Made by a program: the position numbers and the translations under genes. The notes beneath the pieces were generated by a model, which was given only the letters and a program-made list of their open reading frames with translations, was not told the DNA's origin and did no database searches. Below, piece by piece: positions 2,024-46,014 of a stretch of 54,484 nucleotides of DNA (its first letter is position 1; each line of letters begins with the position of its first letter). Source of the DNA: an uncultured Clostridia bacterium. Lineage in GTDB: Bacteria > Bacillota > Clostridia > Christensenellales > UBA1242. Where the stretch lies: NCBI GenBank assembly GCA_934754445.1, contig CAKVHZ010000005.1:1-54484 (forward strand), read 5' to 3'.

Positions 2024-3754
2024 TTATTTTGTTTGAGAATCATATATTTCTTTATAAACTTTACAATTTTCTAACAACTCTTTATGTTTGCCTATTCCCA
2101 CAACATTCCCTTTATCTAGCACAACGATTATATCAGCATTTTTTACAGTGTTTGCTCTTTGAGAAATTAGCACTACCGTTGTATTTTTAATGTTTTGTTT
2201 TATCGCTTTTCTTAAGTTCGCATCGGTTTGAAAGTCTAACGCACTAGCGCTATCATCCATAATTAAAATTTCAGGGTCTCCTACTAATGCTCTTGCTATA
2301 GTCAATCTTTGACGCTGACCACCAGAAAAGTTTTTGCCACCTGATTGAACCATATAATCATATTTGTTAGGCAATTCGCTAACAAACTCTTCACTTTGCG
2401 AAATTTTTAAAGATTTATCCATTTCTTCTAATGTGGCATTTGGTTTTCTCCACGAAAGATTTTCTTTAAGTGTTCCTTTAAATAATACTGCTTTTTGTGG
2501 AACAACTCCTATTTTATCTCTAAGTTGTTTAAAACTATAATCTTTAACATTTACGCCGTCTACAAAAACTTCTCCACTAGTAGTGTCATAAAATCTAGGA
2601 ATTAAATATGCTACACTACTTTTTCCGCTTCCCGTTCCACCAATAATACCTAAAGTTTGACCACTATAAAGTTTTATTGATAAATTTTTAAAAGCAAATT
2701 TGGAGTCTATGCCATAAGAAAAAGAAACATTTTTAAATTCTATTTTAGGTATTTCTTTATCTGTTTCAATTTCTATAAATTCTTTATTTGTTTCTTCAAC
2801 ACTAGGTTTAGTATCAAAAACTTCGTTAATTCTTCCAGCACAATTAAACGCTTTTATAAAAGCAATTATTATATTTGCTAGTGATACTAGTGCCGAAGTT
2901 ATTTGCGTTAAGTAATTAATAAATGCAATTATTTGACCTTGTGTAAGCGAGCCGACATTTACTTGAATTCCCCCAAACCATAAAACTGCAACAATTGTAA
3001 AGTTAATAATGGTAAAAGTTAAAGGATTCATTAAAGATGAAACATCAACAACTTTTATTGCCGATTTCCTTAGTCTTTTAGCACTTTCAACAAATCTTTC
3101 TTCTTCGTAATTTTGCTTATTAAAAGCTCTAACAACCCTAACACCCTCTAGGTTTTCTCTCGTTATTTCCGATAACTTATCTAAATTCTTTTGAGTTTTG
3201 TTATATAGTGGGTCGGTTAATTTTAAAATTAAAAATATAACACCTAAAATTAAAGGCGAAACTATTAAAAATATTAGCGATAATTTAATGTCTATAATCA
3301 TCGCCATGACAATAGAACCAATAAGTAGAAATGGCGTTCGCATTACATTTCTTAAAAAAGAAGAAACCGCTGTTTGAACTCTTGAAACATCGTGAGTTAT
3401 TCTATTGTTAATGCTTGCGGTGCTAAATTTATCAAGTTCAGCATGAGATAAAGTATTAATATGAGCAAAAAGGTTTTTACGAATTTCCGCACCAAAACCC
3501 ATGCTGGCTTTTGCAGCATGTTTTTGACATATAACGGCAACTATTATTCCTAAAATGTTTAAACCAACAACTATTGAACCATATATCGCTATATATCTTA
3601 TATCATGATTAGCAACACCAATATCTATCATGTTTGCCACTAATAATGGTATAATCAATTCTGTAATTGTTTCTATAAATTTAAAACAAGGAGCAATTAT
3701 TGCATCTTTTCTGTATCCTTTTAAATATTTTAATAGTTTTTTCATGAATATCAC
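2024..3754 (-). CDS. ABC exporter half-transporter, probable heterodimer partner of the downstream ORF
   Basis: 576 aa. Walker A GGTGSGKSS, signature FSGGQRQR, Walker B LIMDDSAS. Only 6 nt separate it from the next ORF. Confidence 0.9.
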   Translation of the reverse strand: MIFMKKLLKYLKGYRKDAIIAPCFKFIETITELIIPLLVANMIDIGVANHDIRYIAIYGSIVVGLNILGIIVAVICQKHAAKASMGFGAEIRKNLFAHINTLSHAELDKFSTASINNRITHDVSRVQTAVSSFLRNVMRTPFLLIGSIVMAMIIDIKLSLIFLIVSPLILGVIFLILKLTDPLYNKTQKNLDKLSEITRENLEGVRVVRAFNKQNYEEERFVESAKRLRKSAIKVVDVSSLMNPLTFTIINFTIVAVLWFGGIQVNVGSLTQGQIIAFINYLTQITSALVSLANIIIAFIKAFNCAGRINEVFDTKPSVEETNKEFIEIETDKEIPKIEFKNVSFSYGIDSKFAFKNLSIKLYSGQTLGIIGGTGSGKSSVAYLIPRFYDTTSGEVFVDGVNVKDYSFKQLRDKIGVVPQKAVLFKGTLKENLSWRKPNATLEEMDKSLKISQSEEFVSELPNKYDYMVQSGGKNFSGGQRQRLTIARALVGDPEILIMDDSASALDFQTDANLRKAIKQNIKNTTVVLISQRANTVKNADIIVVLDKGNVVGIGKHKELLENCKVYKEIYDSQTK

Positions 3755-7407: not shown

Positions 7408-8508
7408 ATGACAAATTTAGCACTTTATAGAGAATATCGACCAGCAACTTTTGAAGATGTAATTGGTCAAGAACACATTATAAAAACTTTAAAAAATCAA
7501 ATTAAAAATAATAGTTTGTCTCACGCATATTTGTTTTGTGGAACAAGAGGCGTTGGTAAAACTAGCACAGCAAGAATTTTTGCAAAAGCAATAAATTGTG
7601 AAAATAATGTTGATGGCTCACCTTGTCTAAAATGTAAAACTTGTTTAAGTTTAAACAATTCTTCTAACATTGATATTTTAGAAATTGATGCCGCTTCTAA
7701 TAACAGAGTTGATGAGATAAGAGATTTAAGAGATAAAGTTAAATATCCCCCAGTAAATGGTAAATATAAAGTTTATATCATAGATGAAGTTCATATGTTA
7801 ACCGATAGTGCATATAATGCCTTACTTAAAACTTTAGAAGAACCACCTGCTCATGCAATATTTATATTATGCACAACAGAAGTTCATAAACTACCTAAAA
7901 CAATTCTTTCTCGTTGTATGCGTTTTGATTTTAGGTTGGTTTCTTGTGATGATTTAGAAAAATTGTTAATAAAAGTATTTAACGATAAAAACATTACATA
8001 TGAAAAAGAAGCCTTACATTTAATTGCTTCTCGTGGCGAAGGTAGCGTTAGAGATACTCTTTCTATTGCTGACCTTTGCGTAAGTTTTTGTAATAAAAAT
8101 GTAACTTACAAAGGATGCCTTGATGCCTTAGGTAGTTCTTCAATAGATAGTTTAGATGAAATAACCGATAGTTTAATTGAAAATAATGGCGAAAAATTAC
8201 TAACTAGTTTAGATAAAATTGCACTTAGTGGAATAAATTTTACTATTTTTGCAAAAGAACTTATTAGTTATTTTAAAACTTTACTCACAATAAAAAATGT
8301 TAATAATAGTCAAAGGTTTTTAATGCTACCTGATGATGTGTTTAATAAATACTTAAAAAGAGCAAATGCTTTTACTAGCGAAGAACTTTTAATGATTATG
8401 ACAAAACTAACCGAAATTGAAACTCAACTTAAATTTAGTTTAGATGCCCGAATGCAAGTGGAATTAACCCTACTTAACATTTTATGTGAAAAAAAAAAGA
8501 CTATCTAA
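7408..8508 (+). CDS. dnaX: DNA polymerase III gamma/tau subunit, 0-frame product (clamp-loader core only, 366 aa)
   Basis: Walker A GTRGVGKTS, zinc module CENNVDGSPCLKCKTC, Walker B IIDEVHML, sensor LSRCMRFDF. Ends ...CEKKKTI* two codons after an A10G run. Confidence 0.9.
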   Translation: MTNLALYREYRPATFEDVIGQEHIIKTLKNQIKNNSLSHAYLFCGTRGVGKTSTARIFAKAINCENNVDGSPCLKCKTCLSLNNSSNIDILEIDAASNNRVDEIRDLRDKVKYPPVNGKYKVYIIDEVHMLTDSAYNALLKTLEEPPAHAIFILCTTEVHKLPKTILSRCMRFDFRLVSCDDLEKLLIKVFNDKNITYEKEALHLIASRGEGSVRDTLSIADLCVSFCNKNVTYKGCLDALGSSSIDSLDEITDSLIENNGEKLLTSLDKIALSGINFTIFAKELISYFKTLLTIKNVNNSQRFLMLPDDVFNKYLKRANAFTSEELLMIMTKLTEIETQLKFSLDARMQVELTLLNILCEKKKTI

Positions 8509-8519
8509 AAACGGATAGT
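8489..8519 (+). promoter_or_regulatory. Candidate recoding / slippage site in dnaX: A10G run plus adjacent hairpin
   Basis: A-run 8489..8498 then G. The 0 frame reads GAA AAA AAA AAG, so A_AAA_AAG (8493..8499) is in the classical phase. Inverted repeat ACTATC(8500-8505)/GATAGT(8514-8519) follows immediately. Confidence 0.5.
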
Positions 8520-9035
8520 AATAAAAATAATAAAACTACTATTTCACAAACGAATAAAGAAACTAAAAATAATAATTTAGCAAGTAACAATACTCAAAAC
8601 GAAAATCATAATCAAACTAGTAGTGATATAAACAAAACTCAAGAAATAAATAATTCTGCTACTACACAAAATGCACAAATTATAGATAACGAAAGTTTTA
8701 ATGAAAATATTTTTAGCATAGAAAAAAACACCGACAAAACAAAACTAATAATGGCTAAAATTTTAAAAGAGTTAAGACAAAATGACGAACATTTACTGCA
8801 ATCGGTTTTTCAAGATTTTGAAAATGCAATAATTGTTAAAAACAAATTAATAGTTAGTTTTAGTGGCGAAAATTATAAAGAAATATTAGAAAAAACTAGC
8901 AATTTAACTACAATTAATGATATAATAAGTAGCGACGGCTTAATAGTAGAATATAAATTTGAAACTACTAAAAAAGAAAAAACAATTGATGAAATTTTGA
9001 AAGAAAAATTTAATAAAATAAATATAAAGGAGTAA
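8499..9035 (+). CDS. dnaX: dnaX -1 frame continuation: N/Q/T-rich linker plus tau C-terminal domain (includes track ORF 8751..9035)
   Basis: My translation of the -1 frame from 8499 (DYLKTDSNKNNKTTISQTNKE...KTKLIMAKILKEL...) has no stop until 9035. The final ~95 aa resemble the Firmicute DnaX C-terminal domain. There is no SD before the ATG at 8751. Confidence 0.6.
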   Translation, partial: DYLKTDSNKNNKTTISQTNKETKNNNLASNNTQNENHNQTSSDINKTQEINNSATTQNAQIIDNESFNENIFSIEKNTDKTKLIMAKILKELRQNDEHLLQSVFQDFENAIIVKNKLIVSFSGENYKEILEKTSNLTTINDIISSDGLIVEYKFETTKKEKTIDEILKEKFNKINIKE

Positions 9036-9039
9036 ATTT

Positions 9040-9375
9040 ATGAATAATTTTAGAGGTGGCTTTGGCGGTGGCATGGGTGGAATGAACATGCAAGCATTAA
9101 TGAAACAAGCACAAAAAATGCAAGAAGATTTAGCAAAAAAACAAGAGGAATTAGAAAGTTCAACTTTTAGCGCTACAAGTGGCGGTGGCATGATTAACAT
9201 TGAACTTAATGGTAAAAAAGAAATTTTAAGTTTAAAAATTAACAAAGAAATTGTTGACCCAGAAGATACTGAAATGTTAGAAGATATGATTATTGCTTGC
9301 TTTAATGAAGCATCTAAAAAGGTTGATGAAACTAAAAAATCTACTATGGGAGACATGGGCGGACTTCCCTTTTAA
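9040..9375 (+). CDS. ybaB: Nucleoid-associated protein YbaB/EbfC
   Basis: MQALMKQAQKMQEDLAKKQEELE core, 111 aa. Conserved dnaX-ybaB-recR synteny. Confidence 0.9.
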   Translation: MNNFRGGFGGGMGGMNMQALMKQAQKMQEDLAKKQEELESSTFSATSGGGMINIELNGKKEILSLKINKEIVDPEDTEMLEDMIIACFNEASKKVDETKKSTMGDMGGLPF

Positions 9376-9378
9376 TTT

Positions 9379-9966
9379 ATGATAAGTGCTGATTTTGAAA
9401 AATTAATAAATAGTTTTACTAAACTCCCTTCTGTCGGTATGCGTAGTGCTGAAAGATATGCTTATAGTATTATCAATATGAAAATCGAAGATGCAGAGAA
9501 CTTAGCCCATAACATTTTAGCAGTTAAACATAATATTAAATTATGCTCTGTTTGTGGAAACTTTACAACTGAAGATGTTTGTGATATTTGTAAAAATCGT
9601 AAAAGTGATGTAATTTGCGTAGTTAAAGAGCCTAAAGATATAATTAACTTTGAAAAAATTAAAAATTTTAATGCTCTTTTTCATGTTTTGCATGGAACTT
9701 TAAGTCCTATGAAAAATATTACACCTAACGACTTAAATATAAACTCACTACTTACTAGAATAAGTAACAACAACATTAAAGAAGTTATAATTGCACTTTC
9801 TAGCGATGTTGAAGGCGAAGCAACAAGCATGTATTTAGCAAAACTTTTAAAACCATTAGATATTAAAGTTACAAGACTTGCTCAAGGCATAAGTTTAGGA
9901 ACTGAAATTGAGTATGTAGATAGTGCAACACTCGAGCGAGCATATTCGGATAGAAAAGAATTGTAA
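9379..9966 (+). CDS. recR: Recombination protein RecR
   Basis: N-terminal HhH LPSVGMRSAERYA, C4 zinc finger CSVCGNFTTEDVCDIC, Toprim region. Confidence 0.92.
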   Translation: MISADFEKLINSFTKLPSVGMRSAERYAYSIINMKIEDAENLAHNILAVKHNIKLCSVCGNFTTEDVCDICKNRKSDVICVVKEPKDIINFEKIKNFNALFHVLHGTLSPMKNITPNDLNINSLLTRISNNNIKEVIIALSSDVEGEATSMYLAKLLKPLDIKVTRLAQGISLGTEIEYVDSATLERAYSDRKEL

Positions 9967-36695: not shown

Positions 36696-38075
36696 ATGAT
36701 TAAACGACAATTAGTTGAAAACTGGAGTAGAGTTCTATTTCTGCTTGAAAAAGAAATGACAGCAGTAAGTTTTGATTTGTTTATAAAAACTTTAAAACCT
36801 CTTGCTATAAAAGATGATAAAATAATTCTATATGCGCCAACTGAAATGGCAAAAAATCAGTGCGAAAAAAACTTTATGAATTTAATAAAATTTGCACTAG
36901 ATTCAACATTTCCTGGTGAGTTTAGAGATTTTAAAATCATAACAGGTGAAGAAGAAAAAAATAAATTTTTAGATGATGAACTTATTGGAGAAATTCCGCA
37001 AGAAGAAAAAAAAGTTAGTAGTTATAGAACAAACTTAAATCAAAAATATACCTTTTCTAATTTCGTGGTAGGAAAGAGTAATCAAATAGTTTATGCGGCG
37101 TGTAAAAATGTTGCTGATTATCCCGGAGTAAGGTTTAATCCGTTATTCGTTTATGGCGGAGTTGGACTTGGAAAAACACATTTACTTCATGCTATAGGTA
37201 ATCAAATAATACATAACAACCCAGAAATGCGAGTTTTATATATTACTTGCGAACAATTTACTAACGATTATATGGACGCAATTAGAAGCGATTTTAAAGA
37301 TAATGTTATATCAGTTTTTAGAGATAAATATCGTAATGTTGATGTATTACTAATTGATGATATTCAATTTATTGCTAAAAAGATAGAAACACAAGAAAAT
37401 TTCTTCCATACTTTTAATGATTTATATCAACAAAATAAACAAATAGTTATTGCTAGTGATAGACCACCTAAAGAAATTGAAACTTTAAGTGATAGGCTTC
37501 GTAGTAGGCTTGCAAGCGGTTTAATTCAAGATATTGGTCAACCAGATTTTGAAACGAGAGTTGCAATTCTTATGAAAAAGGCACAACTAGAAAACTATAA
37601 TGTTCAAAGTGAAGTTATAGATTACTTGGCTGAAAAATATGATACAAACGTTAGAGAACTTGAAGGTTGTTTAAGTAAAGTCGTTTTCTATGCTAATTTA
37701 CTAGGTCATCATTTTGCCGATATTAATGATGCAAAAGAAGCCCTTAAAAATGTTGAAAAAGATGACAGAGCAAGAATAAATATGGATAGAATTATTGATG
37801 TTTGTTGCGATTATTATAAAGTAGATAGAGATGACCTTACAGGTAAAAAGAAGAATAAAGAAATAGTTGACCCAAGACAAATAACAATGTATTTAATAAC
37901 CGAAATTTTAGATACTCCGCTAGTGGTAATAGGTAGAGTATTTGGAAATAGAGACCATACAACAGTTATGCACGCAAGAGATAAAGTAACAAGACAACTT
38001 AAAGATGATAGTAATTTAAGAGCCGAAATTAGCGAACTTAAAGAACTAATAAAAAACAATAAAGAAGATTTTTAA
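36696..38075 (+). CDS. dnaA: Chromosomal replication initiator DnaA
   Basis: Walker A GGVGLGKTHLLHAIGN, LLIDDIQF, C-terminal DNA-binding domain DHTTVMHA. Confidence 0.95.
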   Translation: MIKRQLVENWSRVLFLLEKEMTAVSFDLFIKTLKPLAIKDDKIILYAPTEMAKNQCEKNFMNLIKFALDSTFPGEFRDFKIITGEEEKNKFLDDELIGEIPQEEKKVSSYRTNLNQKYTFSNFVVGKSNQIVYAACKNVADYPGVRFNPLFVYGGVGLGKTHLLHAIGNQIIHNNPEMRVLYITCEQFTNDYMDAIRSDFKDNVISVFRDKYRNVDVLLIDDIQFIAKKIETQENFFHTFNDLYQQNKQIVIASDRPPKEIETLSDRLRSRLASGLIQDIGQPDFETRVAILMKKAQLENYNVQSEVIDYLAEKYDTNVRELEGCLSKVVFYANLLGHHFADINDAKEALKNVEKDDRARINMDRIIDVCCDYYKVDRDDLTGKKKNKEIVDPRQITMYLITEILDTPLVVIGRVFGNRDHTTVMHARDKVTRQLKDDSNLRAEISELKELIKNNKEDF

Positions 38076-44910: not shown

Positions 44911-46014
44911 ATGAAAGCATTTTGTGAAGGTTTAGATTTAGTAGAAGCAGTTCAAAAAGTTATTAAAGCAGCAAGCAATAAAACTGTTAATCCTATTTTA
45001 GAAGGTATTAAAATTACAGCCGAAGATGATACATTAACTTTAGTTGCAACAGATAGTGAACTTGCTATTGAAAAGAAAATTAAAGCAGATGTTAAAGTAG
45101 AAGGTGAAACTGTTGTTCCTGGTAAATTTTTTAGCGAATTTGTTAAAAAACTTGCAAACGAACAAATCGAACTTGATTTAAACGAAAAAAATCAATTAAA
45201 AATAAAATATACCGATAGTGAAGTTTATATTCAATGTTTTAATGCATTAGAATATCCAAGTATTCAAAAAATAGATAATGCACAATTTTTTACTATATCT
45301 CAAAGCAATTTTAAAAATTTAATAGATAAAACAATTTTTTCTGTTGCTTTAGATGATAGTAGACCAATACTTAAAGGTTGTTTATTTGAAATAGAAGAAA
45401 ATCAAATTACAAGTGTTGCTCTAGATGGATTTAGACTTGCTAAAGCAACTTATCCTATAATAGAACAAACTGCAAGAGTAAGTGTAATTGTTCCAGGAAG
45501 AAGTTTAAATGAAATAAGCAAATTACTAGAAGATACTGAAGAAAATATAAGAGTATTTATTCAAAGAAATTATTTAATGGTTCAAGTAGATAACACTAAA
45601 ATAATCACTAGATTAATTGATGGCGATTTTATAAATTATAAACAAATTATAAACGACCAATTTTCTACAATTATAACTGTTAATAAAGCACAATTTGAAG
45701 ATAGTTTAGATAGAGCAAGCATTTTAGGTAGAATAAGTAACGACAATATTGTAAAATTAGTTATAACAGATAATATGTTAACACTTTCTGCTTCAAGCGA
45801 AATTGGTAATGTAACAGAAAAAATGAATGTTGTTTTAACTGGTAATGAAATGAGTATAAGTTTTGATGCAAGATTTTTAAAAGATTGCTTAAGAGCCGTT
45901 CAAGATGAATTTATTAAATTATGTTTTACAACAAGTGTTAGCCCTTGCATTATTAAAGCAAACGAAGGCGATAACTATTTATTCTTAGTTTTACCTTTAA
46001 AACAATTTAGTTAA
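44911..46014 (+). CDS. dnaN: DNA polymerase III beta sliding clamp
   Basis: 367 aa. NPILEGIKI, ATDSELAIE, DDSRPILKGC and ALDGFRLA are typical of DnaN. Confidence 0.93.
   Translation: MKAFCEGLDLVEAVQKVIKAASNKTVNPILEGIKITAEDDTLTLVATDSELAIEKKIKADVKVEGETVVPGKFFSEFVKKLANEQIELDLNEKNQLKIKYTDSEVYIQCFNALEYPSIQKIDNAQFFTISQSNFKNLIDKTIFSVALDDSRPILKGCLFEIEENQITSVALDGFRLAKATYPIIEQTARVSVIVPGRSLNEISKLLEDTEENIRVFIQRNYLMVQVDNTKIITRLIDGDFINYKQIINDQFSTIITVNKAQFEDSLDRASILGRISNDNIVKLVITDNMLTLSASSEIGNVTEKMNVVLTGNEMSISFDARFLKDCLRAVQDEFIKLCFTTSVSPCIIKANEGDNYLFLVLPLKQFS

Follow-up and report, generated by a model that had tools for sequence, protein, structure and literature searches.

A two-ORF dnaX in low-GC gut Clostridia, with tau probably made by a frame change at an A10 run

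The clamp-loader gene dnaX of an uncultured Clostridia bacterium (Christensenellales, UBA1242) is split in two. In the 54,484-nucleotide (nt) stretch of contig CAKVHZ010000005.1 (assembly GCA_934754445.1) analysed here, hereafter the window, the open reading frame (ORF) that begins the gene stops just past a run of ten A, and the C-terminal part of tau follows in the -1 frame. The available data point with good confidence to a two-ORF dnaX of reversed polarity, in which standard decoding would give a gamma-like protein and a frame change at A10 would give tau. The split itself is genuine, fixed in the population and conserved in relatives. A first-pass annotation, made from the letters of the window, had proposed that the unshifted frame makes the gamma-like form and that tau needs a -1 event at A10G, and the follow-up supports this as the best account of the locus.

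The split gene and its tau tail

The first part of the gene, ORF1 (7408-8508, plus strand), starts at ATG 7408 and encodes only DnaX domains I-III, a gamma-like clamp-loader subunit of 366 amino acids (aa) under standard decoding. Three Pfam domains score above their cut-offs (PF13177 at residues 20-176, PF22608 at 186-229 and PF12169 at 239-360), and TIGR02397, which describes the DnaX clamp-loader module, reaches 436 bits against a cut-off of 250. The end of ORF1, at 8485-8508 of the plus strand, reads TGT GAA AAA AAA AAG ACT ATC TAA. Ten A (8489-8498, plus strand), the proposed recoding site, are followed by G8499, and the tract closes with the heptamer A_AAA_AAG (8493-8499, plus strand), a possible -1 ribosomal slip site in X_XXY_YYZ phase relative to the ORF from 7408. 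The 0-frame stop, TAA (8506-8508, plus strand), stands two codons past the run and ends the gamma-like product. In the -1 frame, the last stop before the open stretch is TGA (8487-8489, plus strand). Together, the two stops confine the frame change to 8490-8505, a 16-nt interval that has the TGA as its 5' limit and is almost all A-run. At the mRNA level, ORF1 and ORF2 are joined by a run of A11 (one A added) or A8 (two A fewer). Direct reading bears out the 0-frame end, the 366-aa length, the A10 coordinates and the heptamer phase given in the first-pass annotation.

Past the TGA, the -1 frame stays open for 178 sense codons (8499-9032) and closes with TAA at 9033-9035. The protein joined across the two frames is 542 aa long and passes the NCBIfam DnaX equivalog NF004046 with 519.8 bits (cut-off 400, residues 5-509 aligned), and full-length relatives (P0002, P0004, P0018 and others) show 100% coverage of the joined query; the open frame and the length of about 542 aa had likewise been anticipated. 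Its first 84 codons in the -1 frame (8499-8750, plus strand), rich in N, K, T and Q, align to the variable tau linker of full-length homologues. The remainder (8751-9035 with the stop, plus strand, -1 frame), which reads MAKILKELRQ...KEKFNKINIKE, is homologous to the tails of the relatives; over these last 95 codons, identity is 48-62%, whether the relative is split or intact. The tail alone has no Pfam or NCBIfam domain match, and a profile search against PDB sequences gave no match. Its AlphaFold2 model is a compact alpha/beta domain with a predicted local distance difference test score (pLDDT) of 82; a Foldseek search of this model against the PDB returned nothing at E <0.03, and the non-significant matches included the E. 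coli tau C-terminus (5fku_E) with a template modelling (TM) score of 0.39 and DnaA domain I (4tps) with TM 0.45-0.53. Since no structural or domain match is significant, it is homology to full-length DnaX that identifies the tail as the tau C-terminal region, in agreement with the earlier suggestion, and makes it a putative counterpart of the polymerase-alpha-binding domain V.

Judged from its sequence, ORF2 is under coding constraint. Specifically, the -1 frame of the linker is free of stops, whereas its two other frames contain 7 and 19, and a stop-free linker arose in only 6 of 20,000 shuffles (p ~3e-4). For comparison, the longest off-frame open stretch in the long ORFs of the window spans 71 codons (among 4,091 stretches). 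The ratio of nonsynonymous to synonymous substitution rates in the tail is 0.26-0.8, which is below 1 and, in such AT-saturated sequence, a noisy and weak measure.

These observations bear on the explanation that no recoding takes place, with ORF1 as the sole DnaX and ORF2 as either a decaying remnant or a free 94-aa protein from ATG 8751. This ATG falls exactly at the start of the conserved domain, and three relatives (L111-L113) carry the tail as a separate ORF, with GAGAGG and then an ATG 5 nt past an in-frame TAG. However, the 84 codons before 8751 are stop-free all the way back to the A-run and the tail is conserved. In addition, no Shine-Dalgarno (SD) sequence precedes ATG 8751, though neighbouring genes carry AAGGA or AAGGAG, and the ATG is not conserved: at that place L002 reads IIGK and L005 reads VIAN, with Ile and Val, respectively. 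Because the SD is lacking and the ATG is not conserved, an independent start at 8751 is unlikely, and the absence of recoding as a whole is improbable. The first-pass annotation had already seen no SD upstream of the run or before 8751 and had doubted an independent gene, and both points stand. No second dnaX-like ORF lies within the 54-kb window. A public call of ORF2 exists at L001:3577-4128 (window 8484-9035), with ATG 8484 as its start; it reads through TGA 8487-8489 and looks like a gene-caller artefact, since it needs genetic code 4 and the long ORFs of the window otherwise use code 11.

The first-pass annotation had offered a sequencing artefact as an alternative, with a true run of A11 (or A8) and a continuous dnaX. 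Homopolymers are error-prone, and one extra A would restore the frame. The population data refute this alternative. The independent Logan assembly L001 is identical to the window at this site. Clustering at 90% identity places seven full-length alleles (98-99.7% identical) with the 366-aa protein; they occur on about 28 contigs (NCBI, ENA, Logan) and all end in EKKKTI or EKKKTT followed by the stop. In a species 79% identical, represented by three assemblies (L002-L004), the junction reads GAAAAAAAAAAG AAT ATA TAA; the A10 run, the distance from it to the stop and the -1 position of the tail are the same as in the window, and the linker has diverged. The comparison with related genomes suggested at first pass has consequently found both the A-run and the frame arrangement conserved. 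By contrast, no fused allele is present in a database of 5.8 billion clusters, where the best full-length match is only 67% identical overall, and an error would leave the conserved 0-frame stop two codons past the run unexplained. With some 28 contigs, seven alleles, the same site in the 79%-identical species and no fused allele, sequencing or assembly error is excluded for practical purposes.

Candidate mechanisms at the A10 run

In the proposed mechanism, ribosomes on a faithful mRNA would halt at TAA 8506 and release a 366-aa gamma-like subunit with ATPase, lid and collar and no polymerase-binding tail. Tau, of about 542 aa, would come from messages or ribosomes that change frame within 8490-8505, with ...CEKKK of ORF1 joined to DYLKT... 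of ORF2. Specifically, slippage of RNA polymerase on A10 (T10 in the template) would generate mixed transcripts, among which A11 (also A8 or A14) would put ORF2 in frame, and a -1 slip of tandem tRNA-Lys on A_AAA_AAG may contribute. Transcriptional and ribosomal slippage give the same main product, ...CEKKKDYLKT.... Of the two, transcriptional slippage is the one that the sequence comparisons mildly favour over mainly ribosomal frameshifting. No conserved stimulator accompanies the site, since there is no upstream SD-like element and no upstream fold, and the downstream hairpin is misplaced and absent in L002. A-runs of at least nine, moreover, persist in relatives of both kinds, split and intact, no matter whether G or C comes next.

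The alternative that tau is made mainly at the level of translation, by -1 programmed ribosomal frameshifting in which tRNA-Lys moves from AAG to AAA on A_AAA_AAG as in E. coli dnaX but with tau as the shifted product, is the less probable of the two. The heptamer is in the correct phase and identical in L002-L004, and AAG is a rare lysine codon in the window (154 versus 1406 AAA, or 10%). The bare heptamer allows about 14-16% shifting in vitro (bioRxiv 10.1101/2025.10.02.679949), and a significant hairpin does lie 3' of the heptamer in the window. This hairpin, ACUAUCU/GGAUAGU (8500-8519, plus strand), has 7 pairs, -6.7 kcal/mol and z = -3.75, and the 0-frame stop codon sits inside it. The inverted repeat noted after the heptamer at first pass is hence real; its role as a stimulator is another matter, because the hairpin is weak, follows the heptamer at a distance of only 1 nt, too short by comparison with the 5-6 nt or so required in E. 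coli, and has no counterpart in L002 (z = +0.38). The hairpin is probably incidental. Upstream of A10, no GGAG-like or SD-like element stands at the expected 10 nt (8465-8488 reads TAACCCTACTTAACATTTTATGTG), and folding is no better than in shuffles (z = -0.64); a search of Rfam found no RNA family at the junction. Ribosomal frameshifting also leaves unaccounted for that the sites of other split relatives, A10C or A9C, make poor heptamers in bacteria, and that the run is kept at nine or more though seven A would suffice. Among the tRNA genes of the window (tRNA-Glu, tRNA-Arg and two tRNA-Met), there is none for tRNA-Lys.

The composition of the window offers a further view of transcriptional slippage. 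The A10 of dnaX is the sole A/T run of at least ten in the 54 kb and the sole sense-strand A-run of at least nine inside any long ORF; three further A/T runs of nine are all intergenic. Within the long ORFs, sense A-runs fall off steeply with length (120 of A6, 46 of A7, nine of A8, none of A9 and the single A10 of dnaX). Similarly, KKK tripeptides number four versus about 16 expected from the lysine frequency (15,506 codons), and none is encoded as AAA AAA AAA. The fall-off, the depletion of KKK and the intergenic position of the other 9-runs suggest that long A-runs are costly in this host. Such a pattern would be expected if slippage occurs on long A-runs here, and it suggests that slippery runs are selected against.

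Several points weigh against slippage by RNA polymerase and, in part, against the two-ORF interpretation as a whole. We infer the slippage event, its level (RNA or ribosome) and its efficiency from the arrangement of the gene. The in-phase A_AAA_AAG with its rare AAG, common to the window and L002, fits ribosomal frameshifting equally well, and a G after A10 is found in most published cases too (PMC3711429). AT-rich genomes may have polymerases adapted to slip less (PMC1088944). The survey of dnaX copies covers 54 kb only, so that a second copy may exist elsewhere in the genome. Finally, a detached tau tail may be tolerated in this group, given the arrangement in L111-L113.

A last alternative is phase variation, in which replication slippage toggles the run between A10 and A11 and tau is made only in A11 cells. 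Given that tau is normally essential, one would not expect the consensus to be the OFF state in every case, and no A11 allele occurs among the approximately 28 contigs. Although long homopolymers are hypermutable (PMC1088944), as phase variation would have it, this explanation is very improbable.

Junction states in related lineages

Junctions were compared at the border of domain III and the linker in the sampled loci (L numbers), and four states can be told apart. In the first, the run is in frame and dnaX is continuous. An in-frame A9 is found in L011, L116/117 and L118, where it reads GAAAAAAAAACT and encodes the peptide EKKT (L011:2913-2925; L116 and L118, about 2090-2102), and an in-frame A10 is found in L015, a Ca. 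Caccovivens locus (about 3560-3575). In all of these relatives (L011, L015, L116-L118), stops lie 1-6 codons off in both other frames. This is the layout known from Thermus, in which slippage would yield gamma. The first-pass annotation had counted relatives with a continuous dnaX lacking the A-run as a refutation of its proposal. Continuous relatives do exist, but they have not lost the run: an in-frame A9 or A10 is kept at the same position.

In the second state, the tail is in the -1 frame at an A-run. It comprises the window and L002-L004 (A10G), L010 and L020 (A10C, then TAA) and L014 (A9C, then TGA), with allowed frame-change intervals of 10-16 nt. One pair is formed by L014 (3595-3613), which reads GTAAAAAAAAACTGA, with A9 and a split gene, and its sister L015 (about 3560-3580), which reads GCAAAAAAAAAACTGAAA, with A10 and an intact gene. 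As their sequences indicate, these two sister GTDB species represent a natural one-A flip of polarity. The split gene probably arose from an ancestor of the Thermus type, whose A9 or A10 was in frame and flanked by stops in both other frames, when a one-base change of register swapped the product that depends on slippage.

The third state, in which the junction lacks a homopolymer and the tail is read in the +1 frame, is described below. In the fourth, the gene appears to form two cistrons. At L111:2395-2430, and likewise in L112 and L113 (the lineage of P0079, 383 aa), the in-frame TAG is followed by GAGAGG and the ATG; the tail is in the same frame as ORF1 and forms an ORF of 94-123 aa. This arrangement is either a true two-cistron split of tau or a case of stop-codon readthrough. 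A neighbour-joining tree built on the N-terminal 350 residues places the window together with L005 (+1), L002 (A10G) and L011 (in-frame A9) at 79-86% identity, which indicates that the junction state changes over short distances.

Some limits of the sampling should be mentioned. The scan of genome contigs with the N-terminal protein was dominated by the universal YIIDEVHM pattern and returned only relatives that are at most 55% identical, missing the close clade, and a scan of metagenome contigs with a domain-III alignment gave no confirmed relative. A degenerate DNA pattern for IETQLKF had 16 matches, all unrelated. A reconstruction of the mutational path at the junction from nucleotide alignment was dropped, as the linker is of low complexity and similar strings are read in different frames. 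Separately from the Clostridia, an A10 stands at the junction in the Bacteroidota loci L045, L055, L074, L079, L081 and L086 (near 3560) and L087 (3560-3601). These Bacteroidota runs are mostly in frame, with a split in L087, which fits the published Bacteroidetes cases.

The +1 junctions lie outside the window, in sister lineages. With the tail in the +1 frame, the junction reads ACT CCC AGG CAA AAC TAA in L007-L009 (L007:2390-2411), GAGGTG TTA CCC AGT TGA in L108-L110 (L108:2590-2613), AAG TTT CCC AGT TAA in L114/115 (L114:2615-2640), AAG TTT CCC AGA TAA in L119-L121 (L119:2315-2340) and GGAGAG TGC CCC TAA in L016 (3630-3655). L005/6 (L005:3405-3423), the closest sampled relative of the window at 86% identity, reads ACT CTC AGG CAA TAA; here, CUCUC would allow re-pairing at -2. 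Across the +1 junctions, the allowed interval is 11-44 nt and ends in CCC_AGN and then a stop, or in CCC_TAA. In three of the lineages, an SD-like motif (GGAG, GAGG or AGGA) lies 4 nt before the site, an arrangement also known from prfB, and CCC accounts for only 6% of the proline codons in the window. With P0115 (the 379-aa form) as the query, all 120 of the 120 best protein clusters are 379-394 aa long and 83-100% identical; before the stop, 60 of them end in FPS, 50 in FPR and five in FPRN. A slip of tRNA-Pro from CCC to CCA fits the known behaviour of the UGG isoacceptor (PMC4519876). By their sequence features, the +1 sites look like a candidate conserved +1 programmed frameshift in dnaX, with tRNA-Pro moving from CCC to CCA. 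No description of a +1 frameshift in dnaX was found in the literature covered, and the published reversed dnaX cases are all -1.

The states seen among the relatives invite a broader proposal, which is about evenly balanced between right and wrong: in this group of gut Clostridia, tau made by recoding would be a long-lived, selected state, and the recoding device at the junction would be interchangeable over short evolutionary distances (-1 at A10 or +1 at CCC_AGN), with the gene in two cistrons in one further lineage. If real, the +1 sites would add a second mechanism at the same junction, and selection for a short DnaX, as opposed to mere tolerance of it, would become easier to argue. The +1 class would then stand as a new family among bacterial +1 programmed frameshifts, located in a gene essential for replication.

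Genomic setting and known systems

The host is a spore-forming Clostridia bacterium (SpoIIE is encoded in the window) with a guanine-plus-cytosine (GC) content of 26%, close to Christensenellales metagenome-assembled genomes (MAGs). Downstream of dnaX lie its usual partners, ybaB (9040-9375, plus strand; PF02575 at homologous loci) and recR (9379-9966, plus strand; RecR domains at homologous loci), in one operon, and no terminator-like site was found between the ORFs of the dnaX region. All sampled loci share one gene order, namely mini-RNase III, SpoU methylase, sigma factor, dnaX, ybaB and recR. Elsewhere in the window, dnaA (36696-38075) and dnaN (44911-46014) are about 6.8 kb apart and separated by an SPFH/Band-7 gene, uncharacterised ORFs, a helix-turn-helix protein gene and small minus-strand ORFs. 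The replication origin is probably in this stretch, as the cumulative GC skew has its minimum at about 34-44 kb.

The findings have a direct consequence for annotation. For this gene and hundreds of MAG relatives, current gene calls list a truncated dnaX and, separately, a small orphan ORF; the two parts should be joined with a slippage exception. The reversed dnaX design is thereby extended to Bacillota, where Bacillus subtilis is not known to make a form other than tau. In addition, the recoding literature has proposed that a single base can decide whether slippage makes gamma or tau, and this flip becomes visible within one genus-level group; the relatives thus form a natural series in which the setting of the gamma:tau ratio could be measured.

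Among the known systems, the E. coli dnaX cassette shares with the window the heptamer A_AAA_AAG, in the same phase and at the same place in the protein. Unlike E. coli, the window has no SD-like stimulator about 10 nt upstream and no conserved stem-loop about 5-6 nt downstream, and the shifted product is long, not short. Shigella mxiE, Citrobacter tssM and the poly-A genes of endosymbionts resemble the window in that the longer functional product needs a non-templated base at a homopolymer. They differ in being cases of regulation or rescue, whereas both products of dnaX in the window would be expected to be used, and the slippery site of this essential replication gene marks a conserved boundary between domains. 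In Thermus thermophilus dnaX (Larsen et al. 2000, summarised by Baranov et al. 2005, PMC1088944), experiments showed that the A9 run yields transcripts with varying numbers of A, from which both a long and a short DnaX are made; the same summary describes selection against A/T runs of at least nine. Thermus and the window have in common an A-run of at least nine at the border of domain III and the linker. The templated frame of Thermus makes tau and slippage makes gamma, as in the layout of L011, L015 and L116-L118, and the window is the reverse.

The closest parallel is the set of two-ORF dnaX genes of Chlorobi, Bacteroidetes and Verrucomicrobia described by Antonov et al. 2013 (PMC3711429, Nucleic Acids Research 41:6514; GeneTack cluster COF_239165634). 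It comprises 17 dnaX genes in 12 genera, all -1 at the DNA level, nine of them with A10. Chlorobium, Flavobacterium, Cytophaga and Coraliomargarita are among the genera in their Fig. S3, where most of the genes have AAAAAAAAAAG with a stop shortly after it, and the sites, which align to the Thermus A9, were attributed to programmed transcriptional realignment. The design was restated by Sharma et al. 2014 (PMC4066793) and Atkins et al. 2016 (PMC5009743), and in the light of these three papers the novelty of a reversed dnaX was overstated at first pass. The window matches the published class feature for feature: ORF1 ends just after domain III, the tau tail is in the -1 frame, A10 is followed by G with TAA 6 nt later, orthologues keep the arrangement, and the prediction that tau depends on transcriptional realignment applies here as it does to the published cases. 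It is therefore a further example of reversed dnaX and not a new design. No published account of a reversed dnaX in Bacillota was found in the literature covered, which was incomplete. What distinguishes the window from the Antonov set is its host, a 26% GC, Christensenellales-like gut Clostridia outside the nine species of Fig. S3, and a visible local evolutionary series, with in-frame A9 and A10 runs, A10 splits and +1 splits in sister species. Taken together, the host lineage, low-GC Clostridia, and this local series of intermediates are what is new here.

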